NCBI GenBank assembly: GCA_964488685.1
Contig: CAZAVY010000004.1
Location: 158 to 64,157 of the forward strand
Source of the DNA: an uncultured Gammaproteobacteria bacterium
GTDB lineage: Bacteria > Pseudomonadota > Gammaproteobacteria > GCA-001735895
Reading direction: 5' to 3'
Length of the DNA: 64,000 nucleotides
Under the pieces are notes generated by a model. It worked only from the letters and a program-made list of their open reading frames with translations, was not told where the DNA came from and did not search any database. Below are positions 26,629 through 58,308 of the stretch, in pieces (the stretch's first letter is position 1; every line of letters starts with the position of its first letter). Position numbers and translations under genes: made by a program.

Positions 26629-26643
26629 TAGGGTTCGATTGTA

Positions 26644-27606: not shown

Positions 27607-27607
27607 T

Positions 27608-28857: not shown

Positions 28858-28897
28858 GCCCAGTCTGACCTAAGCAAAAAACGGGTAATATAATATA

Positions 28898-30313
28898 GTG
28901 AAATTCTTTAAGCAAAATGACTATTCCGAAGGAACAGCAGCCAAGCATTTCTTCTTTTCGTCTATTGTCATGCTGAATATAGGAGTGTTCCTGGCACTGG
29001 GAACCTCGTTGCGTCTAGCCTGGCCGGATATCATGCCCAACGATATCCCCTGGCTGCACTTCGGTCGAATTCGGCCGGTACATGTACATTTTGTAATATT
29101 CGGCTGGATTTCGATGGCCTTTGCCGGGGCCATGTGTTACATGACCCCGGCCTTGTGCAAATCAAAGCTATGGAGCGAAAAATTAGGCGTCTGGAATTGC
29201 TGGGCCTGGAATCTGGGAATGGTGGCCATTTTTTTCACGCTGATAAATGGATTGACTACCGGACGTGAATATCAGGATTTGATTTGGCCCGTCGATGTCT
29301 ATGTTCTAATGTTTATTTTTATCCCGTTGGCGGTCAACATCTGGATGACGATGTTAACCCGCCGGGTAAAAGGATTGTATGTCACTCTGTGGTTTTTCGG
29401 TGCTGCACTACTGTTTATAATTCTGAGTTACTTCATTGGTGCAATACCCGATTTTTTCCCGGTTACCGGGTTGAGTGAAGCCTATATGACCTGGTGGCAT
29501 GCGCACAATATTCTGGGACTCTGGATCACACCTGTGTCTGCGGCTATTGCCTATTACATCATTCCAAAAGTGTCGGGTAATACGCTTTATAGCCACAAGA
29601 TTGGACATTTACATTTTTGGTCGATCGCGGCTTTCTACTCCACTCCCGGCGCTCATCACCTGATGGGTGCTCCTATTCCCGAATGGCTGAAATCATTTGC
29701 ATCTGTTTCGGGCGTGCTGATTATGATTCCGGCACTGGCTTTTGTGGTCAACATGCTAATGACGATGAAGGACAAGTGGTGGATGTATACCAAGAGTATA
29801 CCGCTACAGTGGGCGCTAACCGGGGTCTTGTTTGCCATTCCACTCAATATTCAGGGTGCTTTCCAGCAGACTAGAGCCCTCAACTGGTATATTCATGGAA
29901 CACACTGGATAGTGGCGCACGCCCATTTGGCCTTGTTGGGATTCTCTACATTTATAGAAATCGGGGCTATTTATTATGGATTGCCAAAATTGCTGAAACG
30001 CGAACTCTACAGCATCAAACTGGCGCAAATCCACTTCTGGATGATGGCAATCGGGTTCCTTGGATTTTGGGCGGTATTAACGGCGGCCGGCCTGGTTCAG
30101 GGTGCGGCAAAGGTATACGAAATTCCTTACCTACAATCGGTTATCGCCATGCATCCATACATGGTTGGACGTGTCCTTTTTGGTTCGATGATCATCGTTG
30201 CCCAGCCAATATTTCTTTACAATATGATAATGACCGCTAAATACGGCAAAAAGTTAACGCCTGATACACCCAGCGATCAAGAGCCCGTTATGGCGGCCTC
30301 GGCAACAACCTGA
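28898..30313 (+). CDS. ccoN: C-family heme-copper oxidase subunit I (CcoN-like)
   Basis: FGRIRPVHVHFVIFGW (heme b His), TWWHAHNILG (CuB His), FYSTPGAHH (Tyr-x5-HH, the C-type cross-link spacing), HWIVAHAHLALLGF (heme b3 and heme b His). GTG start. Confidence 0.9.
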   Translation: MKFFKQNDYSEGTAAKHFFFSSIVMLNIGVFLALGTSLRLAWPDIMPNDIPWLHFGRIRPVHVHFVIFGWISMAFAGAMCYMTPALCKSKLWSEKLGVWNCWAWNLGMVAIFFTLINGLTTGREYQDLIWPVDVYVLMFIFIPLAVNIWMTMLTRRVKGLYVTLWFFGAALLFIILSYFIGAIPDFFPVTGLSEAYMTWWHAHNILGLWITPVSAAIAYYIIPKVSGNTLYSHKIGHLHFWSIAAFYSTPGAHHLMGAPIPEWLKSFASVSGVLIMIPALAFVVNMLMTMKDKWWMYTKSIPLQWALTGVLFAIPLNIQGAFQQTRALNWYIHGTHWIVAHAHLALLGFSTFIEIGAIYYGLPKLLKRELYSIKLAQIHFWMMAIGFLGFWAVLTAAGLVQGAAKVYEIPYLQSVIAMHPYMVGRVLFGSMIIVAQPIFLYNMIMTAKYGKKLTPDTPSDQEPVMAASATT

Positions 30314-30339
30314 TTTATTAACACACGGGGATAGCAGCA

Positions 30340-30861
30340 ATGCCGAAATATGTAATTGGAACCATTCTCGTCGTATTGACAATTTTCACCTCGATAGCGA
30401 TTACTATTGTGGCGGGATCCACCTATATGGCCCAAATTCCGCCGACCGAACTTGCCAAGGAAAAAGAGAAGATCTGGGGGCATACGGGATGGTCTATCAA
30501 GGACCCCTGGATGACAGGTGATCTCGCACCGACGTTGGCGGGGAAAGGTAAAACAATATTTATCCGTGAAGGTTGTTGGTGGTGTCACACCTTGCTTCCC
30601 GAACAGACTCAGGATTGGGCATATTTCGGCGAACCGCCATTAGCGGGCGATGTACAGCTCGAATCACCAAGCCTGTTCGGGTCGGATCGTAAGGCGCCGG
30701 ATTTGCTACACATTGCGAGCCGTAATCGAGTCAAGGCATGGCATTACGTGCATCATCGTAACCCACGTGCGGTAACGCCTGGATCGATCATGCCGGCCTT
30801 TGTGTATTTAAGCGATGAAGACCTCGATGCTATCGTTGCATTTCTGGAAAGTCTTGAATAA
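30340..30861 (+). CDS. ccoO: monoheme cytochrome c subunit (CcoO-like)
   Basis: N-terminal TM anchor, EGCWWCHT heme motif, GSDRKAPDL and PGSIMPAF segments as in FixO/CcoO. Confidence 0.85.
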   Translation: MPKYVIGTILVVLTIFTSIAITIVAGSTYMAQIPPTELAKEKEKIWGHTGWSIKDPWMTGDLAPTLAGKGKTIFIREGCWWCHTLLPEQTQDWAYFGEPPLAGDVQLESPSLFGSDRKAPDLLHIASRNRVKAWHYVHHRNPRAVTPGSIMPAFVYLSDEDLDAIVAFLESLE

Positions 30862-30897
30862 AATTTTGATTGCGCGTTACCGGGAGTACTATCCAAT

Positions 30898-31299
30898 ATG
30901 AATGATGACAACAATATGGACGAACTTGAAGACAAAGGCACTTGTTTCGGGCGGTATTCAGAAGACGACTACGACGGAATAATCGAGGGGAATGGAAAGA
31001 TTCCATGGTGGTTGATACTAATTGTGGCGGTGACGGTATTTGAGGCTTTTTTATTTACCATGCCATGGCCGGGTTTCGGGCAGCGTTATGACAGCGTAAC
31101 CACAACATTCGTCAGTGCAAACGGAAAACAGCCGTGGTGGGACTACGGTTATTATATTATATCGGGGCAAATTATTGTTGTCCTGTCAGGAATAGCTGCG
31201 GTGGTCTGGACTATCAACGTGCAAGAATGGAAAAAAAAGGAGCTGGCCGAAAAGCAGGGTACAGGCGGAGATACTACCAAATCTAGTGATGCTGAATAG
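30898..31299 (+). CDS. CcoP/FixP N-terminal-anchor-like membrane protein without heme domain
   Basis: DYDGIIEGNGKIPWWLILIVAVTVFEAFLF resembles the FixP_N signature (DGI-x-E-x-N-x-x-P-x-WW plus TM). No CxxCH in its 133 aa. Confidence 0.6.
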   Translation: MNDDNNMDELEDKGTCFGRYSEDDYDGIIEGNGKIPWWLILIVAVTVFEAFLFTMPWPGFGQRYDSVTTTFVSANGKQPWWDYGYYIISGQIIVVLSGIAAVVWTINVQEWKKKELAEKQGTGGDTTKSSDAE

Positions 31300-31304
31300 T
31301 TTAG

Positions 31305-31511
31305 GTGGAATTTACCGACAAGATTTCGGTACTAATATTTGCGTTAGTCCTGATGTCAGCGGTAATTTACGTAATAATGTCCGGTTACGTAATTGGTCCG
31401 CTAAAGAATTTAAAATCAGTTGAGCGGGTAATACTGATTGTCAGCGTGATAGGAATAGTGATGGTGGTGGTATATGCCGCTGCAGAGCTCTTGTTTTTCG
31501 TTGTATTTTAG
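31305..31511 (+). CDS. small two-TM membrane protein
   Basis: 68 aa, two hydrophobic helices, GTG start 6 nt after the previous stop. Confidence 0.4.
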   Translation: MEFTDKISVLIFALVLMSAVIYVIMSGYVIGPLKNLKSVERVILIVSVIGIVMVVVYAAAELLFFVVF

Positions 31512-31548
31512 TTGATTCTGTCGACAATCGATGATTTGGGTGCGCTGA

Positions 31549-31977
31549 TTGAAACTCGGTGAAAAGCTTATGTTCGGTTTCTCTATATTGTTGGTCGTAG
31601 TGGCGGTCGGTAGAGGTGTAAAACAAATGAACGAGGAACCCCGAAAGGCAAGAGACTTCTATGAATGGACCGAACTTGCTTTAAAGGGGCACACGCTATA
31701 TCGCAGCATGGGTTGCAATAGCTGTCATCGAGCGATGGGGGTAGGCGAAGTTGGTGTCGGCCCGGTATTGGATGGTGAAGGAACAAAAAGATCAAAGCGT
31801 TGGATTAACGACTATCTGCTCGATCCCTCAAGTCAGGTGCCAGGCACTGCACATGATGGCAGTCTGGGACCGGATTTTCGAACGTTGGCGCAGGATCAGC
31901 GGCAGTTGCTGGGCGCTTTTTTATCGGCCTTAAAATCTAACCCCGGATCGCCTAATTATCCACGCCCGCCTTCATAA
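31549..31977 (+). CDS. membrane-anchored monoheme c-type cytochrome
   Basis: TM anchor MFGFSILLVVVAVG; single GCNSCH motif. TTG 31549 or ATG 31570 start. Confidence 0.75.
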   Translation: MKLGEKLMFGFSILLVVVAVGRGVKQMNEEPRKARDFYEWTELALKGHTLYRSMGCNSCHRAMGVGEVGVGPVLDGEGTKRSKRWINDYLLDPSSQVPGTAHDGSLGPDFRTLAQDQRQLLGAFLSALKSNPGSPNYPRPPS

Positions 31978-32010
31978 AATCGGGATACAATTTTTAACTT
32001 TAGGAGCAAT

Positions 32011-32175
32011 ATGATGTCAGGCGATGTGCTCATTCCCTATATTTGGGCTGCCACTGGTTTGGTGAGTTTGATAGCGATAGTGCTGATGATTTTCTGGGCC
32101 AGTAAACATGGTCAGTTCGATGAAGATATCAAGGATCAAATGTTTACCGCTGGAGACGATGACCGATTTGAGTGA
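32011..32175 (+). CDS. ccoS: cbb3-type oxidase maturation protein CcoS/FixS (54 aa, below the ORF-track cutoff)
   Basis: Hand translation: MMSGDVLIPYIWAATGLVSLIAIVLMIFWASKHGQFDEDIKDQMFTAGDDDRFE. It has the CcoS pattern: one TM segment, W-A-x-K-x-GQFDD/E, and a C-terminal DDD. Confidence 0.7.
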   Translation: MMSGDVLIPYIWAATGLVSLIAIVLMIFWASKHGQFDEDIKDQMFTAGDDDRFE

Positions 32176-32620
32176 CGACCCTGATTCCAAGTCATCGATT
32201 CGTGTTGGAGAATGGATTGTAATAATTGGTTCTGTACTGGTGGTGACATTGGCCGTGGTTATGGGCACAATTATCTATCAAAAACCGCCACCCGTGGTTC
32301 GTACTTATATTGAGTCAGCAGCAAGTATTGAAGGTGAATTAATTTTTCGAAGAGAAAACTGTTTTTCGTGCCACGAAGTATTCAGTAATGGAGCCAGTTA
32401 CGGTCCGAGCCTGGATGGCGTGGGAAGCAAACGTACCGGTGACTGGCTGCAAGCCTATATGCGAAATCCAAGACCGGGTGTTAGTGTTAAACCGTATCGA
32501 TTACGAATGCCATCTTACCAATATCTGGGAGAGGAAAAGATTGATGTATTGGTCAGTTATCTGCAGGGACTACGAACCCTGGACGAAAACGGTAATCTGG
32601 TCAGCCCTGCAGAAGAATAA
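32159..32620 (+). CDS. membrane-anchored monoheme c-type cytochrome
   Basis: Internal ATG 32159 of ORF 32108..32620 overlaps the end of ccoS. TM anchor WIVIIGSVLVVTLAVVMGTII; single NCFSCH motif; RMPSY Met-ligand region. Confidence 0.75.
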   Translation: MTDLSDDPDSKSSIRVGEWIVIIGSVLVVTLAVVMGTIIYQKPPPVVRTYIESAASIEGELIFRRENCFSCHEVFSNGASYGPSLDGVGSKRTGDWLQAYMRNPRPGVSVKPYRLRMPSYQYLGEEKIDVLVSYLQGLRTLDENGNLVSPAEE

Positions 32621-32655
32621 ATAGCCTGTGATTCTTAATGCTGTTACTGTGACAT

Positions 32656-32802
32656 TTACCCCTTTTTAATATAGGATTCGTACTCTTGATCTTTGAACAA
32701 ACCCGTACCAATGCAAGCCCAAGGAACGATAGCCAGTGCGACGCAGGCACCCAGTCCAAATATACCTAATGCAATCTTAACGCCAAGTGAGAGTTCTTCC
32801 AC
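32656..32802 (-). CDS. possible 48-aa one/two-TM peptide
   Basis: Hand translation of the minus strand from GTG 32802: VEELSLGVKIALGIFGLGACVALAIVPWACIGTGLFKDQEYESYIKKG. It fills an otherwise empty 226-bp gap. Weak support. Confidence 0.25.
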   Translation of the reverse strand: MEELSLGVKIALGIFGLGACVALAIVPWACIGTGLFKDQEYESYIKKG

Positions 32803-32846
32803 CGTATTTCCCCAGTTGTTTAATTACGAATTATGAGGTGTAAAAA

Positions 32847-33386
32847 ATGAGTTTAACGGTTTCCAAGTTTATGTCAATACAACGGCTAAAGGCTCCAGTA
32901 ATCTTATTATTCGCTACTTTTTTATTAGTTTCATGTAGCGATACAACTGGCAGTTTTAAGCCCAAACTCGGCGTCGGTGATGTCGCGCCAAAAAGCAATA
33001 ACCGTGTCGTGGCGGATGCGGACCAATGGTATCAGGTATCCACCATGGACAGTAAAGTGCCATTGTATCGTTGGAGAATTGCCGATTTGATTGAACAAAA
33101 TAAACCATTTTTGGTAGTTTTCGGTACGCCGCAACACTGTACCATGTGCGTCGATCAAATTGTGCGAGTGGCGGTAATGGAAGAACAATACGGCGAGCAG
33201 TTCGCCTTTGTCCATATCGACGGTTACAAGGACAATGAGGTCTGGGTAGAATGGGGCGTCAAGGGCGAGCCCTGGACTTTTATCGTCAATGCCAGGGGAA
33301 TAATACAAAACGTTTTCCCGGGTCAAACCGAGTTGGCTCTACTGAAAAACGAAATGCAACAGCTAGTTGAATTGTCGGATTCATAA
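32847..33386 (+). CDS. thioredoxin-fold lipoprotein (TlpA/redoxin-like)
   Basis: Lipobox LLVSC; FLVVFGTPQHCTMCVDQIVRV with a CxxC. Confidence 0.6.
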   Translation: MSLTVSKFMSIQRLKAPVILLFATFLLVSCSDTTGSFKPKLGVGDVAPKSNNRVVADADQWYQVSTMDSKVPLYRWRIADLIEQNKPFLVVFGTPQHCTMCVDQIVRVAVMEEQYGEQFAFVHIDGYKDNEVWVEWGVKGEPWTFIVNARGIIQNVFPGQTELALLKNEMQQLVELSDS

Positions 33387-47255: not shown

Positions 47256-47280
47256 GGAACAATTTTCGCTGTTCGACGTT
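47256..47280 (+). promoter_or_regulatory. candidate ECF-type promoter (GGAAC-N16-CGTT) upstream of the ECF sigma gene
   Basis: GGAAC at 47256-47260, a 16-nt spacer, CGTT at 47277-47280. The MITE-like copy B lies between it and the sigma gene. Confidence 0.3.
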
Positions 47281-47554: not shown

Positions 47555-48196
47555 ATGAACGGTAAGCTGCGAACCAACAGCTGTATCGATGCGAGACAGA
47601 CACGTAGCGCGTTCGAAGCGATGCTACGCCCATGTTTTGACTCATTATATCGAACTGCCCTGCGGATGTGTGGTGATCACATGAATGCTCAGGATATTGT
47701 TCAGGAAACCTGCCTAAAGGCATATAAGGGGTTTAGTAGCTATCAATATGACACAAATTTTAAAGCCTGGATTTTTCGAATTTTGAAGAATCACTGTATT
47801 GACAGCCACCGCAAAAGTATGCGTTCCCCAAAGGTTGAACTGAACGAAGACTTTCCGGACATGGCCGGGCATACGGATAAGCAGTATTCGCAGTATGAAT
47901 TACAGGGAGCTGAATTGCATTTGTTAAACAAATCATTCCGAGCTGAAGCGTTACACGCTATGCGCGAGCTTTCGCCGGATATCCGCATCGTCGTAATCCT
48001 CGCCTTACTGGAAGAAATATCCTATCAGGAAATTGCCGAAGTTGTGGGTTGCCCGATCGGTACCGTGCGTTCACGCGTTAGCCGTGGCAGGGGATATTTA
48101 AAGGAGTCGCTCAAGGATTACAATCCCGAAAGCGCAAAAACCGACCATAAAGTCACCGAGGCGGTGGCTTCGAAGGGTCAAAAGGTTGCCGGGTAA
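47555..48196 (+). CDS. ECF-type RNA polymerase sigma factor
   Basis: Region 2 AQDIVQETCLKAYKGF...FKAWIFRILKNHCIDSHRK; region 4 ISYQEIAEVVGCPIGTVRSRVSRGR. Confidence 0.85.
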   Translation: MNGKLRTNSCIDARQTRSAFEAMLRPCFDSLYRTALRMCGDHMNAQDIVQETCLKAYKGFSSYQYDTNFKAWIFRILKNHCIDSHRKSMRSPKVELNEDFPDMAGHTDKQYSQYELQGAELHLLNKSFRAEALHAMRELSPDIRIVVILALLEEISYQEIAEVVGCPIGTVRSRVSRGRGYLKESLKDYNPESAKTDHKVTEAVASKGQKVAG

Positions 48197-48222
48197 CTGT
48201 AGATATAGCGTAAATAAAAGTC

Positions 48223-49092
48223 ATGAAGAATCATCAAAAAGACAGTGTAAATAATTGCCGGGAAGCCCGGGAAGCCATCTCGGCACGACTGGATTGCGAG
48301 TTGGACAAAGAACAAACGTCACGACTTGAAAGTCACATTCAAGAATGTGAAGCATGTAGACGTCACCTCCAGTGTTTGGAAGCGTTAAATCAAACATTAA
48401 AAACGGAGTTATCCGAACCACAGGATACCACCGCCTTATGGGCGCGAGTTAGTCGTGCTATCGATGTCGACTATGACCAGACCCACAATGAACAGCCTAT
48501 ATTGCCACCGACTGTTCAGCTGCCGACCAATCTGCCGCGGCGTAACATCCTGTCGATGGCGGTTGCAGCTGGAGTGGTGTTGTCGACTGGAGGCCTGGTG
48601 TTGCATTACGCCACAACCGATCAGTCGGGAGAAGTGAATCTGGAAATCGTAAACGATTTTCTAACCTATCGCATCAGTGGCAAAAAACAGGATATTTTGG
48701 GTGAAAACGTCGACCTGGTGACGGGTTGGCTGGCAACACGCGTTGATTTTGAAATACCGGTCAAATCAGCCGAATCTGCCGGTTTCGTGCTCACTGGCGG
48801 TCGCCTTTGTTCCTTTTTAAACCGACGTCTGGTTGCATTGCAATACCGTCAGGGAGATCACGCATTGTCGTTTTATATCATGATCGCAACCGATCTCGAC
48901 CTTCCTGAAAGCGGAACTCACAAGATTGGAAATCGTTGGGTATCTGCGGCGTCGTTGAAGGGATTGACGAACGTAATCTGGCAATCGGAAGGACTGGTTT
49001 TTGCCGCGGTATCTGACCTGGATAAGCCGCAAGTGTTTGATTTTATTGCACAACAGATCGGCAATGGGCATTCCGGTCCGGACACGGTTTAG
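48223..49092 (+). CDS. zf-HC2 anti-sigma factor with TM segment and periplasmic domain
   Basis: HIQECEACRRHLQCLEAL (zf-HC2); TM segment ILSMAVAAGVVLSTGGLVL. Directly follows the ECF sigma gene. Confidence 0.75.
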   Translation: MKNHQKDSVNNCREAREAISARLDCELDKEQTSRLESHIQECEACRRHLQCLEALNQTLKTELSEPQDTTALWARVSRAIDVDYDQTHNEQPILPPTVQLPTNLPRRNILSMAVAAGVVLSTGGLVLHYATTDQSGEVNLEIVNDFLTYRISGKKQDILGENVDLVTGWLATRVDFEIPVKSAESAGFVLTGGRLCSFLNRRLVALQYRQGDHALSFYIMIATDLDLPESGTHKIGNRWVSAASLKGLTNVIWQSEGLVFAAVSDLDKPQVFDFIAQQIGNGHSGPDTV

Positions 49093-49132
49093 AAAGACTT
49101 GTAAACAATAACACCACCGGAGGATCGAAAAT

Positions 49133-49702
49133 ATGACCGATGAAAACAATCAGGAAAATCCCAAGGGCTTGCCTTCGTGCATGCAACGTCGCGACCTGCT
49201 AAAGGCCAGCGCTGTCGGCGCGACAGTAGCTGTGGTTGGTCCGAATCTGGCATTCGGGGCTACGCCTGGCGATGTCAAGGGCGCTTATCCGCGCCTGCCG
49301 GTGATTGATATTGGCAAGCTGAAAGAAGGTGAACCGGTTGCATTCAATTTTCCGCTGGAAGAGCAACCAAATATGATCGTCAAATTAGGTGAACCGGCAC
49401 AAGGTGGAGTCGGACCGGACAATGATATTGTCGCCTTTAGCGTACTTTGTACGCATATGGGCGGTAGCTTGCGCGGGCGTTATCAACACGACTCCAAAGC
49501 CATGGGGCCTTGTCCATTTCATTTTTCCACGTTTGATTTGACCAAAGGCGGCACGCCGGTTCACGCCAGTGCTACGCAGAATCTTCCCCAAGTCCAACTG
49601 GTCGCCGAAGATAGTCAAATTTTCGCGGTCGGCATGCAAGGTCTAATTTATGGTTACCGGGACAATTTGCTGGATGGCAATCCGGTAGTTCGCAGGGCGT
49701 AG
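49133..49702 (+). CDS. Tat-exported Rieske [2Fe-2S] subunit, arsenite oxidase small-subunit (AioB)-like
   Basis: Twin-arginine signal MQRRDLLKASAVGATVAVVG. Rieske ligands CTHMG ... CPFHFSTFDLTKGG. Confidence 0.85.
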   Translation: MTDENNQENPKGLPSCMQRRDLLKASAVGATVAVVGPNLAFGATPGDVKGAYPRLPVIDIGKLKEGEPVAFNFPLEEQPNMIVKLGEPAQGGVGPDNDIVAFSVLCTHMGGSLRGRYQHDSKAMGPCPFHFSTFDLTKGGTPVHASATQNLPQVQLVAEDSQIFAVGMQGLIYGYRDNLLDGNPVVRRA

Positions 49703-49752
49703 CACCGGATCTTGATCCGATAAGATAACTTTAAGAGGAGAAAAAATAAATC

Positions 49753-52377
49753 ATGTCTAACAAAAAACATTTGAACCGTCGCGAATTTCTGATGGCTGCG
49801 CGTAGTCCTTCCATCGACTACGGCGTCTACGAGCCTTCCTCGGAAACAGTTCCCATACCTCCGGCACATGCCGAAGTTCACACTACCGCCTGTGACTACT
49901 GTATTGTTGGCTGCGGTTACAAAGCCTATACCTGGCCGGTGGTAGGTATGGATGGTGGTTCGAAGGCAGGTCAAAATGCCTTCCACCAGGACTTCCCGAT
50001 CAAGGCAGCGGAAGGTAACTGGGTGAGCCCGAACATGCACAATGTGGTGCGTAAAGATGGCAAACTCCACCATGTGGTGGTGGTGCCGGACGGTGAGTCC
50101 GCGGTTAATCGCAAAGGTAATCATTCGGTACGTGGCGGCAAAATAGCCCAGAAAGCCTACAGCCCGAGCAAACCTACTGCGGATCGCCTGCAAGCCCCTT
50201 TGCTCAGGGTCAACGATAGCTTACAGCCAATCTCCTGGGATGATGCGACCACGATTGTCGCCGAACTCTCGCGTTATGCCATCGATAAGGATGGTCCGAA
50301 TGCGTTTGGCATGCGTTACTATTCTTATCAATTCTGGGAAAATACCTATGCATTCTCGAAGCTGATTTACAAGGATATCGGTACCGCAATCGGTGCCGAA
50401 CATGACAAACCCACCGGCAAAAACGATGCCGTTGGACTCGACGATAGTGGCGTCGACGGATTTTCAACTTCTTATTCTGATTTTAAACTAGCCGATGTGA
50501 TCTTCATGTCGGGTTTCGACCCTTACGAAAACCAAACGATTCTATTCACCGAGTGGATAGCACCCGGAGGCGCCAAAATCATCTTCGTCAACCCTCGAAA
50601 GAGTCCGACGGCTGTTTACGCCGAACGTAATGGTGGCCTGCATTTACAGGTACAACCGAATACGGACACAGTGCTTAACAATGCGATCCAGCGTTACATT
50701 CTGGAACAAGGCTGGGAAGACCGGGAATGGATCGAACGCAGCACCGCGAGTCGTGAAGAAATCATGATGGAAAAGAAAGGCGGTGGCTGGCGTCGGAGAA
50801 CCTTCGGTCAGACTTTCGAAGAGCATAAAGCCTGGTTATTGTCCGACGATACCTACACGCTTGATAATGCGGAAAAGATCACCTGGGTACCGAAAGCGAA
50901 AATTATAAGAGCCGCCCGGATGATGGCAAGGCCACGCGGTAAGCTGCTTCCAAAAACTACTGTGATGCTGGAGAAAGGTAACTATTGGTCATTCAACTAT
51001 CCGGCAAGCGCCTCTTTATCATCGCTCGGTTTATTGTGTGGCGCGGGTAGTCGTCCCGGTCATAATATGTGCCGGGCAGGTGGCCACCAACGCGGTGGTA
51101 TGAAACTTAAGGGTTATCCATTGAGTAAATCCTGGGTTGAATCGAAACATGGTCGCAAAGGCGAACCCGCCCCGATACCGGTCAATTTCGACAAATACGC
51201 CATGTCGGGCAAGCTCAAGGTGTGCTATATCCTCGGCACCACCTGGCTAGATTCGATAAATGCAGGTCAGTCGATCCGACTCAAGCTCGGCGAACTAACC
51301 CGCAAGCATCCGGTGCAACCCGATAGCCTGCACACCGAAATATTTATCAAAGCACTTAAGAAACGTATGGATCAGGGAGGCATGTTCCTGATTCAACAGG
51401 ACATCTACCCGAATACGTTAACCGACTTTGCGGATATCGTGCTACCGGCTGCGACCTGGGGCGAAGTGGACTTTACCCGTGCGCAAGGCGAGCGTCGTTT
51501 AAGAATGTATTCCCGGTTTTACGATCCACCGGGGGAAGCCAAACCGGACTGGTGGATTCTTGCCCAGATAGCCAAAAAAATGGGTTACGAAGGATGGGAT
51601 TACCAGGAATCAAACGATATCTTTGAAGAAGCCGCGAAGAAATCTAAAGGCGGTAAATACGATTTCTTTCATGTTGTCGAGGAAGCCAGAAAAGCGGGCA
51701 AGAAAGGCCACGAATTTTTACGCGAAATGAGTACCACCGGCATTCAGCTACCCGCGCGAATCGTCGACGGCAAGCTAGTTGGCACCAAACGTTTGCACGA
51801 CGAAACCTTTCCCGAATCCGAGAAGAGTACCGCATCGAAAGTGGTTTATAAATTTAAAACCAAGAGCGGCAAAGCCATCTTCATGAAGGGTGACTGGGAT
51901 CTGGTCAAAGATACTTTTGAGTTGTTCCGACCCAAAGGCGAAGAACTTTGGGTGTCAAACGGGCGCATTAATCACCTCTGGCAATCGATGTTCGACGATA
52001 CGCGACAAAGCTTTGTCAAACAGCGCTACCCATCGAATTTCCTCATGATCAACCCGGTTGATGCCAAAAAACGCGGTATCGAAAGCGGCGATCTGGTGGC
52101 CGTCGAGAACGACCAGGTACTCAATCAGCTCGGCGAAGTAACCCGCGGGGTGATTTCACTGGTTGCCTATGTGACCGACGAAGTTGGATTAGGAGTTACC
52201 TATACTTATGCATTCTATCCAGGACAGTCCGCCGATTCGATTGTACCGGCAGTAACCGATCCGGTTACAGGTGTTTACAATTACAAAATCGGCAAGGGTA
52301 TGGTACGTAAAACTGGCGAAACCCCACTCAAGAAATTAGAGGGCAGTATGTCGTTTATTCCAAGAACCGTCGGTTAA
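49753..52377 (+). CDS. molybdopterin (bis-PGD) oxidoreductase catalytic subunit, arsenite oxidase large-subunit (AioA)-like
   Basis: N-terminal C-x2-C-x3-C [3Fe-4S]-type motif TACDYCIVGCGYKAYTWP, characteristic of the Aio clade. 874 aa; follows the Rieske gene as in aioBA. Confidence 0.85.
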   Translation: MSNKKHLNRREFLMAARSPSIDYGVYEPSSETVPIPPAHAEVHTTACDYCIVGCGYKAYTWPVVGMDGGSKAGQNAFHQDFPIKAAEGNWVSPNMHNVVRKDGKLHHVVVVPDGESAVNRKGNHSVRGGKIAQKAYSPSKPTADRLQAPLLRVNDSLQPISWDDATTIVAELSRYAIDKDGPNAFGMRYYSYQFWENTYAFSKLIYKDIGTAIGAEHDKPTGKNDAVGLDDSGVDGFSTSYSDFKLADVIFMSGFDPYENQTILFTEWIAPGGAKIIFVNPRKSPTAVYAERNGGLHLQVQPNTDTVLNNAIQRYILEQGWEDREWIERSTASREEIMMEKKGGGWRRRTFGQTFEEHKAWLLSDDTYTLDNAEKITWVPKAKIIRAARMMARPRGKLLPKTTVMLEKGNYWSFNYPASASLSSLGLLCGAGSRPGHNMCRAGGHQRGGMKLKGYPLSKSWVESKHGRKGEPAPIPVNFDKYAMSGKLKVCYILGTTWLDSINAGQSIRLKLGELTRKHPVQPDSLHTEIFIKALKKRMDQGGMFLIQQDIYPNTLTDFADIVLPAATWGEVDFTRAQGERRLRMYSRFYDPPGEAKPDWWILAQIAKKMGYEGWDYQESNDIFEEAAKKSKGGKYDFFHVVEEARKAGKKGHEFLREMSTTGIQLPARIVDGKLVGTKRLHDETFPESEKSTASKVVYKFKTKSGKAIFMKGDWDLVKDTFELFRPKGEELWVSNGRINHLWQSMFDDTRQSFVKQRYPSNFLMINPVDAKKRGIESGDLVAVENDQVLNQLGEVTRGVISLVAYVTDEVGLGVTYTYAFYPGQSADSIVPAVTDPVTGVYNYKIGKGMVRKTGETPLKKLEGSMSFIPRTVG

Positions 52378-52392
52378 GGCAGGAGGAGACCC

Positions 52393-53139
52393 ATGAAAAA
52401 TATTATCAACAAAATTTTCCTGTCGGCAGCATTTGTCGCTTTGGCTGGTTTCACCGTCAGTCCAGTCGGTGCCGCCTCGACACCAGAGGCAACCGAGTCA
52501 CTGCTCATGTTGGGCCAGACCACCTACATGCGTGAATGCGCCTCGTGCCACGGGGCAGAAGGCGATGGAAAAGGATCCGGCGCTTACATTTTGAATCCGA
52601 AGCCGAGAAATTTTCAGCTCGGTGTGTATAAACTGCGTACTACACCCAATGGTGAAGTACCGACACCGGGGGATCTGTTTAAAACGATTAGCAAAGGCAT
52701 ACCCAACTCGATGATGCCGTCGTTCAATTCCCTGTCGGAACAGGAGCGTTGGGGTCTGGTTCACCATATTTTGGCTCTCGGTGAACTCGAAGATGAGGAA
52801 TCGATGGCCGTTGATATACCGGCCGAACCGGATCGAACGCAGGCCGGCATTTCAAACGGTAAGAAAATATACGTTGAGCTCAAATGCAATTCATGCCACG
52901 GCGACGACGGATGGGGCGACGGATCTTCATCCCTGACGCTCGAAAACGATGCCAAGGAACGTGTATTCCCGCCCAATTTAACAACCGGCGTATTCAAAGG
53001 AGGCTCCAGTTCTGTTGATCTCTATACCCGTATAGCGACCGGTATGGATGGTTCGCCCATGCCGTCTTACGCCGACGAAGCCAAGCCTGCGGAAATCTGG
53101 GATCTGGTGCATTATTTGCAGACACTGAGTGAAAAATAG
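52393..53139 (+). CDS. periplasmic diheme c-type cytochrome (paralog of 26644)
   Basis: CASCHGAEGDGKG and CNSCHGDDGWGDG. YKLRTTPNGEVPTPGDLFKTISKG parallels FKLRSTPSGSFPTDADLFKSLSRG. Confidence 0.8.
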   Translation: MKNIINKIFLSAAFVALAGFTVSPVGAASTPEATESLLMLGQTTYMRECASCHGAEGDGKGSGAYILNPKPRNFQLGVYKLRTTPNGEVPTPGDLFKTISKGIPNSMMPSFNSLSEQERWGLVHHILALGELEDEESMAVDIPAEPDRTQAGISNGKKIYVELKCNSCHGDDGWGDGSSSLTLENDAKERVFPPNLTTGVFKGGSSSVDLYTRIATGMDGSPMPSYADEAKPAEIWDLVHYLQTLSEK

Positions 53140-53288
53140 ATCTGCGAGCATATAACGAGGTTGCTGTAGCAATCCCAAGGGTATTCCGTTAGTGCCATCG
53201 AACTGACTGGATATTCTTGCGTTTCAGGATGTTATTCCGGTCAATCCCGAGCCGTTTTATCTATATCTAATTACAGGAGTCTATTGAC

Positions 53289-54026
53289 ATGAAACTCACG
53301 AAACCAATGCTTGCACTGGTCGCTATTGGCAGCATGCTGGGCAGCGAAGCCAACGCCAAATATAAGGTGAAGGCCGTAGAAAACGGTGGCACGATCCAGG
53401 GTATGGTCAGGTTTAGTGGTGCCGTGCCAATGCTTGAGGCCACCTTAATTGGTAAGGACAATGCTGTCTGCGGAGATGGCAGCATCATCTCTAATCCGGT
53501 TACCGTGGGCAGTGCTGGCGGGCTTGAAAATACCGTGGTATATCTCGAAAAAGTTAAGACGGGTAAGGCCTGGCCGAAGCAGGAATATACTTTGGATCAG
53601 AAGCAATGTACCTTCGAGCCATATCTACAAGTGGTGCCGAAAGGCGCCAAATTGACGATCAGAAATTGGGATTCGGTACTGCACAATATACATCCGTACG
53701 AAATTATTGGGGATTCGCGTCGTACCTTGTTCAATATGGCGCAACCTATACAGTATCAGGAAACCGTCAAAAAAATAAAGACCCGAAAAGGTATAGTGGT
53801 CGAGCTCGCCTGCGACGTGCATTCGTGGATGGCGGGTTGGTTGTATGTTCTCGAACACCCCTATTTCGCCGTGATTGGCGCCGATGGGGCCTTCCAGATT
53901 AGTGATATACCACCCGGCGACTATAAACTGGTGGCGTGGCACCCGGTCCTCGGCACGCAGGACCAGGCGATCACGGTCGGTGCCAGCACTGAACTCGATG
54001 CCAATTTTCAATTCAAAGGCGGATAA
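53289..54026 (+). CDS. secreted amicyanin-like cupredoxin (paralog of 24072)
   Basis: LHNIH ... CDVHSWMAGWLYVL ligand pattern; GTIQGMVRFSG and DGAFQISDIPPGDYKLVAW flanks. Confidence 0.7.
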   Translation: MKLTKPMLALVAIGSMLGSEANAKYKVKAVENGGTIQGMVRFSGAVPMLEATLIGKDNAVCGDGSIISNPVTVGSAGGLENTVVYLEKVKTGKAWPKQEYTLDQKQCTFEPYLQVVPKGAKLTIRNWDSVLHNIHPYEIIGDSRRTLFNMAQPIQYQETVKKIKTRKGIVVELACDVHSWMAGWLYVLEHPYFAVIGADGAFQISDIPPGDYKLVAWHPVLGTQDQAITVGASTELDANFQFKGG

Positions 54027-54385
54027 AGTCGGTGCGACGATTTGCGGCTCGTAGATCAAAGAGTTGTCCAGCATTTATGGATGCCTTCCCGCTTCGAGTC
54101 AAGGTTTTCGGCTCGCGTGCTCAGGTTACAATCGACGTCAAATTGCCGAGCGCAAATGATGCCGTCATCGATAACTCGGTGTCTTCCAGCGTATTTTGTC
54201 CAGCGTTGCCGGTGGATTGATGCTGTTAGCAGCGTTGCATTTATTTGGGTTGGTTCGGCATTCACGACAATCCTGGTTTGATCTCGGTGGTGATTTTTTT
54301 GCTTCGCCGATCCGCTCGGTGATGGTCTCAGGTGCTCCAGCAGCGCCATTGACTCTACGGAGTTTTCAACGGTTTTTTACCTTGC

Positions 54386-54505
54386 CCGCTGGCACTGGCA
54401 GGGCAATTGCAGCAGGTAATTGCGGCGGCTTTAATGGCTGGATCAAGCTTTGTGGTAATTGTCAATTCATTGCGGAAACCACGAGATGAACTATCGAAAC
54501 CCTAG
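54386..54505 (+). pseudogene. P-type (heavy-metal) ATPase C-terminal remnant
   Basis: Frame reads PLALAGQLQQVIAAALMAGSSFVVIVNSLRKPRDELSKP-stop, resembling the last TM helix and tail of P1B ATPases (IPLAA-G-x-L-x-P-x-IAA-x-AM-x-x-SS-x-x-V-x-x-NSLRL). The upstream 54040-54385 is multi-frame debris. Confidence 0.4.
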
Positions 54506-54657
54506 TCTTGTGTCTAAAACTGACCTTCCCTCCGAGAGTGGTGTTAGCAACCACGCACTAGCCCGTATTTCTCGTCAGGGTTCGTTGTGAGATCTAGCGC
54601 CGGTCGCCGACAAGAGCTGCGCACTTTAATCCGTTTATCCGGGCGCGTTTGAGGTCT

Positions 54658-55446
54658 ATGCGATATCGAGTGATACATTTATCTCGGTTATTGCGAGCGA
54701 TCACGAGCTTTGCGTTGGTGCTCTCGTCGTTCCAGGCGCAAGCCGAATCCATCCGTGTCGCCGCTGCCGCCAGTCTGTCGCACGCTTTGCCTGAAATTGT
54801 TACCGAGTTCCATCGCGATAGCAATCACAACGTAAAACTGAGCTTTGGTTCGTCCGGGAACCTCAGCCGCCAAATCCGCCAAGGAGCACCTTTTGCAGTG
54901 TTCCTTGGTGCCGATGAAAGCTATGCCCAGTCGCTGGCAAATGATGGCTATGGCGAAAGCGCGGTCTATGCCGTCGGGTACCTTTCGTTATATGTGCCAT
55001 CTGGTTCGCTCCTCGATGCGAGTGCCGACCTGATTTCGATGGGACGAACGCTCGATCGAGACCGAATGATTCGTTTCGCAATCGCCAACCCCGACCACGC
55101 GCCTTATGGTCGTATGGCGAAACAGGCTTTGCAGCGTGCCGAATTATGGCAACGTATTCAAGCGAGGTTAGTGACAGGTGAGAATGCAGCGCAAACGGCA
55201 CAATTTGCAATCACCGGTTCGATAGACGCCGCGCTGATTCCGCGGTCGCTGGCCGTACTTCCTGCTCTGGCACGATATGGAATTTCAACCGATGTGCCTG
55301 AATCGCTGGCACCTCCATTGCGTCAACGGATGTTATTGATAAACGGTGGCGGGGATGCAGCTCGGGAGTTTTTTAACTTTTTGCGAAGCGAGGCTGCACG
55401 CGCGATATTGGCACGGCACGGGTTTGGGGCGCCACAAATAAATTGA
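54658..55446 (+). CDS. modA: molybdate ABC transporter substrate-binding protein
   Basis: Signal peptide; RVAAAASLSHALPEIVTEF...LSFGSSGNLSRQIRQGAPFAVFLGADESY. ATG 54658 lies within ORF 54649. Confidence 0.85.
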   Translation: MRYRVIHLSRLLRAITSFALVLSSFQAQAESIRVAAAASLSHALPEIVTEFHRDSNHNVKLSFGSSGNLSRQIRQGAPFAVFLGADESYAQSLANDGYGESAVYAVGYLSLYVPSGSLLDASADLISMGRTLDRDRMIRFAIANPDHAPYGRMAKQALQRAELWQRIQARLVTGENAAQTAQFAITGSIDAALIPRSLAVLPALARYGISTDVPESLAPPLRQRMLLINGGGDAAREFFNFLRSEAARAILARHGFGAPQIN

Positions 55447-55459
55447 ATGGTTAATCGTT

Positions 55460-56146
55460 ATGTATGACTGGGCTGGAATCGAGTGGGGATCTTTTGCATT
55501 GTCATTACGCCTGTCTGCCTGGTGTGTATTGATTCTTTTTGCAATCGGGATTTTAATTGCAAGGTTTCTGGCATGGCGGCGCTTCCCAGGGCGCAGCATG
55601 TTGATCGCTTTGGTGGCGCTGCCATTAGTACTGCCTCCAACCGTGCTGGGATACTATCTACTGGTGGGTCTTGGTCACAACACCTGGCTCGGACAAACAG
55701 TAGCGGCGCTTACCGGCCAGACGCTGGTGTTTTCGTTTAGTGGGTTGCTACTTGCTTCGGTTATTTCCAGTTTACCGTTTGCGGTGCAGCCGACGTTGCG
55801 CGCGTTCGAAATGATTCCACAGACTCTACGCGAGGCGGCCTGGTGTAGTGGCCTGTCGCGCTGGCAGACCTTTTTACGCGTTGAGTTTCCGTTGGCCTGG
55901 CCTGGAATACTTACCGGACTGGTTTTGACTTTTGCCCACACGATGGGCGAATTCGGGGTGGTGTTGATGGTTGGTGGCAATATTCCCGACGAGACCCGCA
56001 CGGTATCGATTGCTATTTTCGATCGAGCACAGGCCTTCGATGATGCTACCGCCGGAGCCATGTCGCTAATGTTGTTGAGCTTTGCTTTCATCACCGTGAC
56101 GGCGGTATATACACTCGAACAACAACGCAATTTCGGACATCAGTGA
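55460..56146 (+). CDS. modB: molybdate ABC transporter permease
   Basis: Five or six TM segments; EAA-like loop LREAAWCSGLSRWQTFLRVEFPLAWPG. Confidence 0.85.
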   Translation: MYDWAGIEWGSFALSLRLSAWCVLILFAIGILIARFLAWRRFPGRSMLIALVALPLVLPPTVLGYYLLVGLGHNTWLGQTVAALTGQTLVFSFSGLLLASVISSLPFAVQPTLRAFEMIPQTLREAAWCSGLSRWQTFLRVEFPLAWPGILTGLVLTFAHTMGEFGVVLMVGGNIPDETRTVSIAIFDRAQAFDDATAGAMSLMLLSFAFITVTAVYTLEQQRNFGHQ

Positions 56147-57246
56147 ACGGCCTGGAGGTTACATTGTTCCAGCACTCGCCAATACCGTTGAATGTAACGC
56201 TGCATTGCGAACCCGGAGAAGTGTTGGCGTTGGTCGGGCCGTCGGGCAGCGGTAAATCAACAGTGCTCCGGTGTATCGCCGGGTTGTATCGCCCAAAAAT
56301 TGGTTCGATTCGTTGTCGCGGCAAAACCTGGTATTGCAGCGAGCGCAAAGTGAATTTAACCCCGCAACTTCGTCGCGTAGGTTTTGTATTCCAGCACTTT
56401 GAATTGATGCCGCACCTTAGCGTGTTGGGAAATCTGTGCCTGGCGCTTGGTGAGTTACCACGCAATCAACGCAAAGCGAAGGCCCGCAAATTACTCGCCC
56501 GTGTCCACCTTGAGGGATTTGATGAGCGAATGCCGGCCCAGCTTTCAGGCGGTCAGCAGCAACGTGTTGCATTGGCGCGTGCGCTGGCTCGTGATCCTGA
56601 ATTGCTGTTGTTGGATGAGCCTTTCTCCGCGGTAGATCAGGTAACACGCCGTAAGTTGCGCCGTGAAATGATTGCTTTAACGCGTAGTATACAAATCCCC
56701 ATCGTATTGGTGACGCATGACCTCGACGAGGCCAGCATGCTGGGTGATCAAATCAGTGTGTTACAGAATGGCAATTCTCTACAACAGGGCTTATCGGCTG
56801 ACGTGCTGGGGCGTCCTGCGAGCGCTACTATCGCGCGTTTAATTGATCTTCGGAATCTATTCGAGGCACGCGTAGTCAGTCACCAAATAGACAAAGCTAC
56901 GACCAAAATTGACTGGGGCGATATGCAATTACAAACATCGCTGGCAGAGCAATTCAACCCGGGCGAGTCAGTTTGTTTCTGTATCGCGCCGGACAAAGTG
57001 CTGCTTCACCAACGAGTACGTCCCTCCGGTGGAAGGGTCGAAAACCCCGTTGCTTTGAAAATTCGAGACATAATCACAGTTGGCAGTATCGCGAGCCTGA
57101 TACTGGACACTCGGTGTGGAAAATCGCTGGAAATGGATTTGCCGCCCCACGTGGTCGAGCGTAATCACCTAACAATCGGTGATGAGGTGAGCGTGTCGCT
57201 ACTTGGTGAATCGATTCATCTGATGCCGTGGCAGACACTGCGCTGA
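56143..57246 (+). CDS. modC: molybdate ABC transporter ATP-binding protein
   Basis: Walker A GPSGSGKST, LSGGQQQRVALARAL, and a C-terminal TOBE-like domain. GTGA overlap with modB. Confidence 0.85.
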   Translation: MNGLEVTLFQHSPIPLNVTLHCEPGEVLALVGPSGSGKSTVLRCIAGLYRPKIGSIRCRGKTWYCSERKVNLTPQLRRVGFVFQHFELMPHLSVLGNLCLALGELPRNQRKAKARKLLARVHLEGFDERMPAQLSGGQQQRVALARALARDPELLLLDEPFSAVDQVTRRKLRREMIALTRSIQIPIVLVTHDLDEASMLGDQISVLQNGNSLQQGLSADVLGRPASATIARLIDLRNLFEARVVSHQIDKATTKIDWGDMQLQTSLAEQFNPGESVCFCIAPDKVLLHQRVRPSGGRVENPVALKIRDIITVGSIASLILDTRCGKSLEMDLPPHVVERNHLTIGDEVSVSLLGESIHLMPWQTLR

Positions 57247-57282
57247 TTTTCGGTGAAACTTACTTGAACACATTCAGGACTA

Positions 57283-58308
57283 TTGCTTGCTATGAAACCG
57301 ACTCTAAAAGACCAGCTTAATCGCCCGTTACATGACTTGCGTATTTCGGTGACCGACCGTTGTAACTTCCGTTGCGTTTACTGCATGCCCAAACGGAAGT
57401 TTGGCAAAGACCACATATTTTTGCCGCGTAACGAGTTGTTGAACTTTGAAGAGATCGAGCGTATAGCACGGGTATTTGTTGACCACGGTGTGCGTAAATT
57501 ACGCATTACCGGGGGCGAGCCTTTGATTCGCCAGCATCTGGAAAAGCTGATCGAACGGCTGGCCGAAATTTCGGGTGTTGAAGATTTGAGCATGACCACC
57601 AATGCCTCATTGCTTACCGCTAAACGCGCGCAATCTTTGCGCGATGCAGGCATGCAACGATTAAACGTTAGTCTCGACGCGCTTGACAATGAAACGTTTA
57701 AAGCGGTCAATGATGTGGATTTTCCGGTTGAGCGCGTACTGGATGGTGTAGCCGCCGCCCAATCAATCGGCTTTGAATCGATCAAAATAAATATGGTTGT
57801 GAAAAAGGGCATGAATGATCACAGCATATTGCCGATGGCGCGTTACTTTCATGGTTCTGGCCAAATCCTGCGATTTATTGAATTCATGGACGTCGGCACG
57901 ACAAATCAATGGGATTATGGCGCCGTGATTTCATCACGGAAAATAGCCGCTATTATTCATGCCGAATTGCCGATTGAACCGGTTCAGCCGAATTACAGAG
58001 GCGAGGTAGCCAGGCGTTGGCGTTACCTCGATGGTGGTGGCGAGATCGGCATTGTCTCTTCAGTCACTCAACCTTTTTGTGGCGATTGCTCGCGTGCGCG
58101 GTTGTCGGCAATCGGCAAAATCTACACCTGTCTGTTCGCTGGACAAGGCTACGATTTGCGCGATGTATTGCGTGCTTGCGATGACAATCGACTATTGAGT
58201 GAGCGTATCAGATCGATTTGGTTGCAGCGACGTGATCACTATTCGGAAACTCGCTCGTCGGTGTCAGTGTCCTTACCGCGAATTGAAATGTCTCACATCG
58301 GCGGATAA
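57283..58308 (+). CDS. moaA: GTP 3',8-cyclase (radical SAM, Moco biosynthesis)
   Basis: LRISVTDRCNFRCVYCMP radical-SAM motif; C-terminal CGDCSRARLSAIGKIYTCLF cluster. ATG 57292 is an alternative start. Confidence 0.9.
   Translation: MLAMKPTLKDQLNRPLHDLRISVTDRCNFRCVYCMPKRKFGKDHIFLPRNELLNFEEIERIARVFVDHGVRKLRITGGEPLIRQHLEKLIERLAEISGVEDLSMTTNASLLTAKRAQSLRDAGMQRLNVSLDALDNETFKAVNDVDFPVERVLDGVAAAQSIGFESIKINMVVKKGMNDHSILPMARYFHGSGQILRFIEFMDVGTTNQWDYGAVISSRKIAAIIHAELPIEPVQPNYRGEVARRWRYLDGGGEIGIVSSVTQPFCGDCSRARLSAIGKIYTCLFAGQGYDLRDVLRACDDNRLLSERIRSIWLQRRDHYSETRSSVSVSLPRIEMSHIGG

Follow-up and report, generated by a model that had tools for sequence, protein, structure and literature searches.

A candidate Idr-like molybdenum oxyanion reductase beside the IdrA clade, with an ECF sigma factor, a dihaem cytochrome and a predicted two-domain blue-copper protein

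The window studied here is a 64-kb stretch of DNA from an uncultured gammaproteobacterium (contig CAZAVY010000004.1), and the locus that we examined within it, at 47555-58308 on the + strand, comprises ten co-oriented genes. At its centre lie the genes for a Rieske protein and a molybdenum (Mo) catalytic subunit of the enzyme family that includes arsenite oxidase (AioBA) and iodate reductase (IdrAB). We tentatively favour the view that this Mo enzyme is a periplasmic Idr-like oxyanion reductase controlled by an extracytoplasmic function (ECF) sigma factor, with iodate as its likeliest substrate, and that it is not of the AioA type. The comparisons that point this way are made at the level of sequence: the Mo subunit falls on the IdrA side of a deep split from AioA, and its predicted active-site pocket has the residue pattern of the IdrA clade. 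An earlier note, made by reading the letters of this DNA, had cautioned against assuming a standard arsenite oxidase; that caution is upheld, and the locus encodes a Rieske plus Mo/[3Fe-4S] enzyme of the Aio/Idr family. The four genes that the note described are found at exactly the coordinates it gave, and our open reading frame (ORF) calls agree:

49133-49702, + strand: Rieske [2Fe-2S] small subunit of the AioB/IdrB type, 189 amino acids (aa); PF00355, TIGR02694 and TIGR01409, the last for a twin-arginine translocation (Tat) signal
49753-52377, + strand: catalytic subunit with Mo-bis(pyranopterin guanine dinucleotide) (Mo-bisPGD) and [3Fe-4S], 874 aa; PF18465, PF00384 and PF01568
52393-53139, + strand: dihaem cytochrome c, CcoP-like and Sec-exported, 248 aa; PF00034 twice, with CASCH and CNSCH motifs
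53289-54026, + strand: predicted two-domain blue-copper protein, Sec-exported, 245 aa; AlphaFold2 (AF2) model, Foldseek and ligand alignment

The Rieske protein bears the twin-arginine signal RRDLLKASAVGATVAVVG (TIGR01409, 19.7 bits against a cut-off of 16.7), CTH...CPFH motifs and a TIGR02694 match of 129.7 bits (cut-off 95.65). Its best match in the Protein Data Bank is AioB (E 1e-29), and it is 42% identical to Azonexus IdrB and 45% to NT-26 AioB. The cluster motif of the Mo subunit is C48-x2-C51-x3-C55, and the 'Rieske 3Fe-4S' domain PF18465 matches with E 2.6e-35. The Rieske-then-Mo gene order, the Tat signal on the Rieske subunit and the C-x2-C-x3-C [3Fe-4S] motif had all been noted earlier, and the domain matches bear them out. 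However, an architecture of Tat-Rieske, Mo-bisPGD and C-x2-C-x3-C is common to AioAB and IdrAB and does not discriminate between them.

The phylogeny of the Mo subunit separates it from AioA. In an alignment of 130 sequences, it shares 44.6% identity with Azonexus IdrA and 42.3% with the Vibrio homologue, against 32-34% with four AioA proteins (NT-26, Thermus, Ralstonia and Cytobacillus) and about 25% with Escherichia coli NapA and FdhF. A neighbour-joining tree was built with NapA and FdhF as its root and 60 bootstrap replicates. In it AioA splits off first, and a long branch then leads to a superclade that holds the IdrA clade, a Chloroflexi-type clade, a three-sequence clade and the clade of the window protein (44 sequences). 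The superclade, which leaves AioA outside, and within it the window and IdrA clades each have a bootstrap support of 100, and the Chloroflexi-type clade has 95. The Mo subunit therefore lies beside, not within, the IdrA clade, and a second tree with other sampling put the window clade beside IdrA. The placement in the Aio clade proposed earlier is thus wrong. The note had also named the result that would make this an ordinary arsenite oxidase, namely tight grouping with biochemically proven AioA and retention of all four of its substrate-contacting residues; the phylogeny, now run, gives no such grouping, and one of the four is replaced (see below). The window clade comprises about 44 protein clusters, mostly from marine Alphaproteobacteria, and its named members are marine Alphaproteobacteria. 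A scan of a library of about 15 billion proteins, held as one representative per 50%-identity cluster, returned 151 representatives at E <= 1e-30, none of them full-length above 46% identity. Our literature search turned up neither an account of the window clade nor any link between a cupredoxin and idr clusters, and an exact look-up of the window Mo protein on public contigs gave zero records.

An ordinary AioBA arsenite oxidase in an unusual neighbourhood is what NCBI's automatic name for the Mo subunit group, 'arsenate reductase (azurin) large subunit', would imply, but we consider it very improbable. Both subunits do exceed the arsenite-oxidase 'equivalog' cut-offs of TIGR02693 (359 bits) and TIGR02694, and the best solved structures for both by sequence are AioA and AioB. 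However, the window protein scores only 473 bits with TIGR02693, against 1468-1500 for true AioA, and the model is non-discriminating because an idr-type IdrA passes too, at 426 bits, as does a Chloroflexi-type homologue at 485. The cut-off admits IdrA-type proteins and all Idr-like clades (426-485 bits), and therefore public records name all of these arsenate reductase (azurin) or arsenite oxidase. Surveys of aioA that use such annotation models would mis-assign the genes of this clade to arsenic cycling. The 100% bootstrap for a superclade that leaves AioA outside also speaks against an ordinary AioBA, as do an altered pocket and the lack of an arsenic gene context, to which we turn now.

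In NT-26 numbering, the conserved second-sphere residues of AioA are Asp169, His199, Arg201, Glu207, Lys413, Arg447, His451 and Glu453 (PMC10448176). At these eight positions the window protein has, in our alignment, S191, H217, K219, D225, K408, R441, H445 and R447: four match AioA, another two are conservative replacements, and the two funnel acids are gone. The pattern S/H/K/D/K/R/H/R is shared by the window and IdrA clades, against D/H/R/E/K/R/H/E in AioA. Specifically, Asp169→Ser, Arg201→Lys, Glu207→Asp and Glu453→Arg distinguish it from AioA, as does deletion of a four-residue GGAG loop; all of these changes are common to the IdrA and Chloroflexi-type clades. The window protein thus carries an Idr-type pocket signature, which we defined here from the alignment and which is not a published definition. 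The Arg in place of an acid at the funnel mouth would suit an anionic substrate. Like AioA, the window protein keeps the equivalents of NT-26 H199, K413, R447 and H451 and has no Cys, selenocysteine (Sec) or Asp in the column of the Mo ligand; it differs in having Thr there, where AioA has Ala.

These assignments revise a by-eye mapping in the earlier note, which started from four arsenite-contacting residues of Alcaligenes faecalis AioA, His195, Glu203, Arg419 and His423 (NT-26 His199, Glu207, Arg447 and His451). Arg419 and His423 were correctly matched, and are window Arg441 and His445, but the positions of His195 and Glu203 were misplaced. The first His, thought to be missing, is window His217, conserved in every clade; its apparent loss was an alignment error. 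The segment YYSYQFWEN, in which it had been sought, aligns with NT-26 F168-D169-H170...E178, and the Glu203 position is window Asp225 and not the Glu of FWEN.

Around the shared signature, five invariant or near-invariant residues of the window clade differ from IdrA: W195 (F in IdrA), E216 (mostly P), T221, F414 (N) and N843 (R). The T221 column is the Mo-ligand position, occupied by Sec140 in FdhF, Cys in NapA, Ala203 in AioA and Ser, Gly or Ala in IdrA; in the F414 column, IdrA has Asn and AioA a polar residue (D, K or Q). The Chloroflexi-type clade (P0045-P0113; loci L027 and L028), about 50% identical to the window protein and with the S/H/K/D/K/R/H/R signature in common, has Y195, P216, A/S221, H414 and R843 instead. 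Altogether, the eight window-clade sequences tabulated agree at 13 positions near the pocket, in a combination absent from every other clade.

Such residues could mean that the enzyme is an Idr-like reductase for another oxyanion (bromate, chlorate, selenate, tellurate or nitrate), with the pocket changes of the clade reflecting a new specificity. The 13 clade-unique positions, T221 at the Mo-ligand column and F414 among them, fit this idea, as do a regulator type and a gene order unlike those of idr clusters (see below). We nevertheless think it unlikely: the neighbourhood is without a chlorite dismutase, selenium or tellurium gene, and iodate is far commoner in seawater than the other halogen or chalcogen candidates. 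It is quite conceivable, if doubtful, that the specificity of the clade is neither arsenite oxidation nor iodate reduction, and that the invariant Thr together with W195, E216, F414 and N843 defines a new member of the Aio/Idr family. Such an enzyme could serve lithotrophy as an oxidase that feeds a dedicated C-family oxidase or peroxidase, or it could reduce another oxyanion, in either case under ECF control that senses the periplasm.

The gene context lends arsenic no support. We searched the 64 kb by tblastn with NT-26 AioX, AioS and AioR, ArsR, ArsC, ArsD and Acr3, an aquaglyceroporin, Pst proteins and three IdrP-type peroxidases, and nothing was found except one negligible match (E 0.003); Pfam searches of the other large ORFs of the window gave no arsenic genes. 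The lack of aioXSR, ars and phosphate/arsenate transport genes remarked on earlier thus holds for the whole window. Among the genes of the cluster itself (47555-58308) there were zero matches to arsenic-related families; the flanks of the 12 related loci described below were screened only with the cluster's own proteins. Reference loci, taken from annotated plasmids or replicons of NT-26, Cytobacillus, Ralstonia, Thermus, Azonexus and Vibrio, present a different picture where AioA is concerned: in NT-26, aioXSR-aioBA-cytC adjoins phosphate and phosphonate transport genes, and aioBA of Cytobacillus and Ralstonia adjoins ars genes, with pst genes also in the Cytobacillus locus. What the window locus does have in common with AioBA (A. 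faecalis, 1G8K; Pseudorhizobium banfieldiae NT-26, 4AAY) is the architecture, the small-then-large gene order and the cofactor motifs.

To see which neighbours are constant, we compared 12 other loci that encode a 60-87% identical enzyme. They come from marine alphaproteobacterial metagenome-assembled genomes (Hyphomicrobiales, Methyloligellaceae, Geminicoccaceae, Minwuiaceae and Kiloniellaceae), from the metagenome contigs L001 and L002 and from the isolate Pelagibius sp. Alg239-R121 (L017). The order Rieske, Mo subunit, dihaem cytochrome, cupredoxin is kept in all 12, with the cytochrome and cupredoxin genes each conserved throughout. What follows the cupredoxin gene varies: an IdrP-like dihaem peroxidase in 7 of the 12, and in the other 5 a Cox11/DUF4382/CcoN/CcoO-P cluster whose cbb3-type oxidase is divergent (ccoN 219 bits, cut-off 583). 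In these five (L001, L012, L014, L015 and L016; about 14.3-19 kb per locus), the oxidase cluster consists of a 303-aa protein with a C-terminal Cox11 domain, DUF4382, a divergent CcoN and a 574-aa CcoO-CcoP fusion. FixS-like and P-type ATPase genes come next in L001, and after them modA. The window locus has neither module after its cupredoxin gene, and tblastn found no peroxidase or oxidase gene remnants in the 620-bp gap between that gene and modA. Hence the earlier statement that IdrP-type peroxidases are lacking is true of the window but does not extend to the relatives, 7 of which have one.

The relatives' peroxidase is 53% identical to the peroxidase encoded next to idrB in Azonexus, and 42% to the second Azonexus peroxidase; we equate the former with IdrP1 because of the published gene order, idrP2-P1-B-A in Pseudomonas SCT and Denitromonas IR-12 (PMC10989891). 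The Azonexus plasmid has two peroxidase genes, the Rieske and Mo subunit genes, a cytochrome c gene and moaA, and the Vibrio replicon shows the same peroxidase-peroxidase-Rieske-Mo order. An idrP2/idrP1 pair directly 5′ of the enzyme genes is thus seen neither in the window, which has no peroxidase gene, nor in the seven relatives, which have one IdrP-like gene, downstream. A gene for Mo cofactor (Moco) synthesis nearby is a shared trait: moaA follows idrA in the Azonexus and Thiothrix clusters, and cytochrome c and molybdotransferase genes stand alongside aio in NT-26. A downstream cytochrome c and a Moco-biosynthesis gene are therefore ordinary for the Aio/Idr family. The Chloroflexi-type clade is simpler, with Rieske and Mo genes only and no accessory genes.

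The cytochrome and the cupredoxin had been described earlier as a diheme cytochrome c and an amicyanin-like cupredoxin, private to this enzyme. The first part largely stands: the cytochrome is dihaem and the 245-aa protein contains a cupredoxin, but the protein is more than an amicyanin: a CarboxypepD_reg-like beta-sandwich accompanies the cupredoxin core, making two domains. An AF2 model built with 39 homologues has a predicted local distance difference test (pLDDT) score of 92.5, and its top Foldseek matches are cupredoxins, amicyanin and plastocyanin (template-modelling (TM) score 0.65-0.75, probability 1.0); a Foldseek search of a viral library added nothing. H132/H135, C175, H178 and M181 are invariant in the 39 homologues, with the Cys-x2-His-x2-Met spacing of amicyanin, so that from its modelled fold and its set of His, Cys, His and Met ligands we predict a type-1 copper protein. 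The central fold and the His...Cys-x2-His-x2-Met arrangement are alike in amicyanin and plastocyanin, but the extra beta-sandwich and an invariant Cys pair, C61/C107, differ. The family runs to about 850 protein clusters, for which annotation goes no further than hypothetical or 'plastocyanin'.

The pair is not private. The Myxococcales locus L029, whose Mo subunit lies in the IdrA clade, encodes in order a sensor kinase, a sigma-54 activator, a dihaem cytochrome, a cupredoxin, two peroxidases, the Rieske and Mo subunits and a second cupredoxin; its first cupredoxin is 42% identical to the window blue-copper protein, and its dihaem cytochrome 34% identical to ours (E 2e-39). A homologue of the cupredoxin also sits between idrA and a peroxidase gene in the Nitrospirales locus L021. 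On these homologies, the cytochrome/cupredoxin pair is an accessory of the wider Idr family. With the dihaem C-terminal part of the L001 CcoO/P fusion, the window cytochrome likewise shares 34% identity (E 7e-50).

The window also holds a paralogue of the blue-copper gene, at the head of a second respiratory cluster at 24072-33386 on the + strand; its product is 36% identical and has the same Cu ligands. The cluster further encodes a metallophosphoesterase, a SoxA/TsdA-like cytochrome, a CcoP-like dihaem cytochrome, a cytochrome c, a COX1 fragment, a divergent CcoN (234 bits, cut-off 583), two CcoO-like proteins and a thioredoxin-like protein. Immediately 5′ of it, at 19701-23577, are ccmF, ccmH and cycH.

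These electron-transfer partners raise the alternative that the enzyme works in the oxidising direction, like AioAB: a reduced inorganic substrate (arsenite, antimonite or another low-potential oxyanion or metalloid) would pass electrons through the Rieske cluster to the dihaem cytochrome c and the cupredoxin, and on to the relatives' divergent cbb3-type oxidase (O2) or peroxidase (H2O2), or here to an oxidase encoded elsewhere. The two downstream modules look like interchangeable electron sinks, as 78-87% identical enzymes precede either the oxidase cluster (5 loci) or the peroxidase (7). The dihaem cytochrome is CcoP-like, and the cupredoxin paralogue heads a second divergent cbb3-type cluster in the window (24072-30861). 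H217, R441, H445 and K408, whose AioA equivalents contact Mo=O or substrate, are kept, and an 'unknown clade' beyond IdrA includes proteins from arsenite oxidisers (PMC8692401). Against this stand the absence of aioXSR, ars and pst/phn genes from the 64 kb and of any arsenic family match among the cluster genes. The funnel acids, mutation of which lowers AioA activity, are moreover exchanged (Asp169→Ser, Glu453→Arg) in the IdrA pattern, which favours an anion, and bona fide Idr reductase clusters have the same types of peroxidase, cytochrome and cupredoxin. We therefore place oxidation on the unlikely side, while taking it seriously.

Upstream of the enzyme genes is a feature absent from the earlier note, a sigma/anti-sigma pair preceded by a promoter-like site:

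47256-47279, + strand: ECF-type promoter-like site GGAAC-N16-CGT, 276 bp 5′ of the sigma gene; putative function, from sequence
47555-48196, + strand: ECF (group IV) sigma-70 factor, 213 aa; PF04542, PF08281 and TIGR02937
48223-49092, + strand: membrane-spanning zf-HC2 anti-sigma factor, 289 aa; PF13490, H-x3-C-x2-C zinc-finger

The sigma factor matches PF04542 (E 8.7e-17), PF08281 (E 1.2e-13) and TIGR02937 (100.4 bits, cut-off 42.9); it consists of regions 2 and 4 only and has an anti-sigma gene alongside, as is characteristic of an ECF/ZAS-type pair. The anti-sigma factor matches PF13490 zf-HC2 (E 7.8e-9), and an alignment of 11 orthologues shows that the H-x3-C-x2-C motif, a single transmembrane segment and a C-terminal periplasmic domain (DFxT...GxRLC...RRL...W) are kept. 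The anti-sigma gene ends 40 bp before the Rieske gene, and of the 12 related loci, 11 have the pair beside the enzyme genes, in divergent orientation in two (L016 and L019).

GGAAC-N16-CGT is the classical form of an ECF promoter. With identical spacing it lies 89-132 bp 5′ of the sigma gene in 6 of 9 related loci tested, at a chance rate of 0.04 per 350 bp, and in L016, which has divergent regulators, it stands 72 bp 5′ of the Rieske gene. The copy at 47256-47279 is thus a putative autoregulatory promoter, and the best explanation of the arrangement is that the sigma, anti-sigma, Rieske, Mo subunit, dihaem cytochrome and blue-copper genes form one ECF-controlled operon transcribed from it. 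The count of sites in the window is not significant by itself, since 6 are found where 2.2 are expected, and at least 6 occur in 4 of 100 shuffles. Two of the further sites on the + strand are placed near genes of interest: one at 48913-48936, in the 3′ end of the anti-sigma gene and about 200 bp before the Rieske gene, and one at 26604-26627, 17 bp before the CcoP-like gene of the second respiratory cluster. A scan for sigma-70 promoters and terminators found fewer sites in the window than in shuffled sequence.

Export of the enzyme would rely on the small subunit. The N-terminus of the Mo subunit (49753-49830) carries a twin-arginine remnant, RRxxLxAAR[ST]PS[IV]D, conserved across the window clade and lacking a hydrophobic segment; large subunits of the Chloroflexi-type clade have a full Tat signal and a lipobox, and IdrA and AioA have neither. 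Because the Rieske protein bears a Tat signal and the Mo subunit only this remnant, the latter is presumably exported alongside the former. Given a twin-arginine element on both large subunits, the Chloroflexi-type clade is possibly the sister group of the window clade.

If the enzyme is an Idr-like reductase, electrons would flow from the bc1 complex to the dihaem cytochrome, the cupredoxin or both, and then through the Rieske cluster and [3Fe-4S] to Mo, where an anionic oxyanion, most likely iodate, would be reduced under low oxygen. The relatives' peroxidase or high-affinity oxidase would remove H2O2 or O2, or might merely use the same electron donors. The membrane anti-sigma factor would free the sigma factor on a cue in the periplasm, which would be the substrate or else a reactive by-product. 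Iodate is the main oxidised iodine species in seawater. The iodine concentration there is 0.4-0.5 uM (PMC11445184). Marine aerobic Alphaproteobacteria with idr genes reduce iodate when oxygen is limited (PMC11445184). In the published model for Pseudomonas SCT, H2O2 and O2 are products that IdrP and a terminal oxidase, respectively, remove (PMC8692401), and these sinks match the two alternative downstream modules of the relatives.

Overall, the window enzyme resembles IdrAB (Pseudomonas sp. SCT as well as Denitromonas sp. IR-12) in its Tat-Rieske and Mo-bisPGD/[3Fe-4S] subunits, its superclade, its pocket signature and loop deletion and its nearby moaA, and further in the IdrP-type peroxidase of related loci and the cytochrome and cupredoxin homologues of some idr clusters. 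It differs in belonging to a separate clade (42-45% identity), in the twin-arginine remnant of its Mo subunit, which IdrA lacks, and in gene order: B-A-cytochrome-cupredoxin and then a peroxidase, an oxidase or neither, against P2-P1-B-A in idr. The reverse reaction, oxidation of iodide to iodate, was considered and rejected: that couple, at about +0.7 V, is too high in potential to reduce a Rieske/cytochrome c chain, which lies at about +0.1 to +0.3 V (established redox values, not computed here).

Several points weigh against iodate reduction. The assignment of a substrate to this clade is a prediction from sequence, and an identity of 42-45% lies in the range where enzymes of the dimethyl sulfoxide (DMSO) reductase family switch substrate. 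Our IdrA anchor, the Azonexus and Vibrio sequences, was chosen by gene order and taxa and is not the sequence of an assayed enzyme; among the homologues found with Azonexus IdrA as query, none is named from an iodate reducer that has been assayed. The branching order of the sub-clades inside the superclade has a bootstrap of 28%. W195, E216, T221, F414 and N843, which adjoin the pocket motifs, set the window clade apart from IdrA. The idrP2-P1-B-A organisation is absent, peroxidase genes being lacking in the window and at most one per locus, downstream rather than upstream, in the relatives. Idr-type clusters have a sensor kinase and a sigma-54 activator where the window locus has an ECF sigma/anti-sigma pair. 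Finally, a downstream terminal oxidase or peroxidase is equally compatible with an electron-donating enzyme.

If the clade does reduce iodate, it would be a second iodide-producing lineage in marine Alphaproteobacteria, wired and regulated unlike idr, and relevant to the unexplained iodide excess in oxygenated seawater. If it has another activity, this would be a new function in a small enzyme family, that of the 151 representatives. The cultured carrier, Pelagibius sp. Alg239-R121, makes the question of substrate directly testable. The two-domain blue-copper protein, for its part, is a widespread and still nameless partner of Idr-like enzymes and cbb3-type oxidases.

The remaining genes of the locus are for molybdate transport and Moco synthesis, and the order modABC then moaA after the cupredoxin gene (54649-58308) is as noted before:

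54649-57246, + strand: modA, modB and modC, molybdate ABC transporter; modA TIGR01256 152 bits (cut-off 62.5)
57283-58308, + strand: moaA, GTP 3′,8-cyclase, step 1 of Moco synthesis; TIGR02666 368.8 bits (cut-off 284)

The modABC genes may be part of the enzyme operon. An Rfam scan of the window found neither a Moco riboswitch nor any other family.

Two groups of library proteins bear on the wider family. P0365 and P0370, two representatives in the 50%-identity library, have their place in the tree between AioA and the Idr superclade; Arg201, Glu207 and Glu453 are as in AioA, but Asp169 is lacking, and they may be intermediates of an Aio-to-Idr transition. P0374, P0386, P0415 and P0396 contain Aio/Idr-like Mo/[3Fe-4S] modules (34-39% identity) within proteins of 1,100-2,100 aa, where the fusion partners are a flavin amine oxidase, a pyrroloquinoline quinone (PQQ)-type glucose/sorbosone dehydrogenase with a Planctomycete cytochrome c, and a LodA-like lysine-oxidase.

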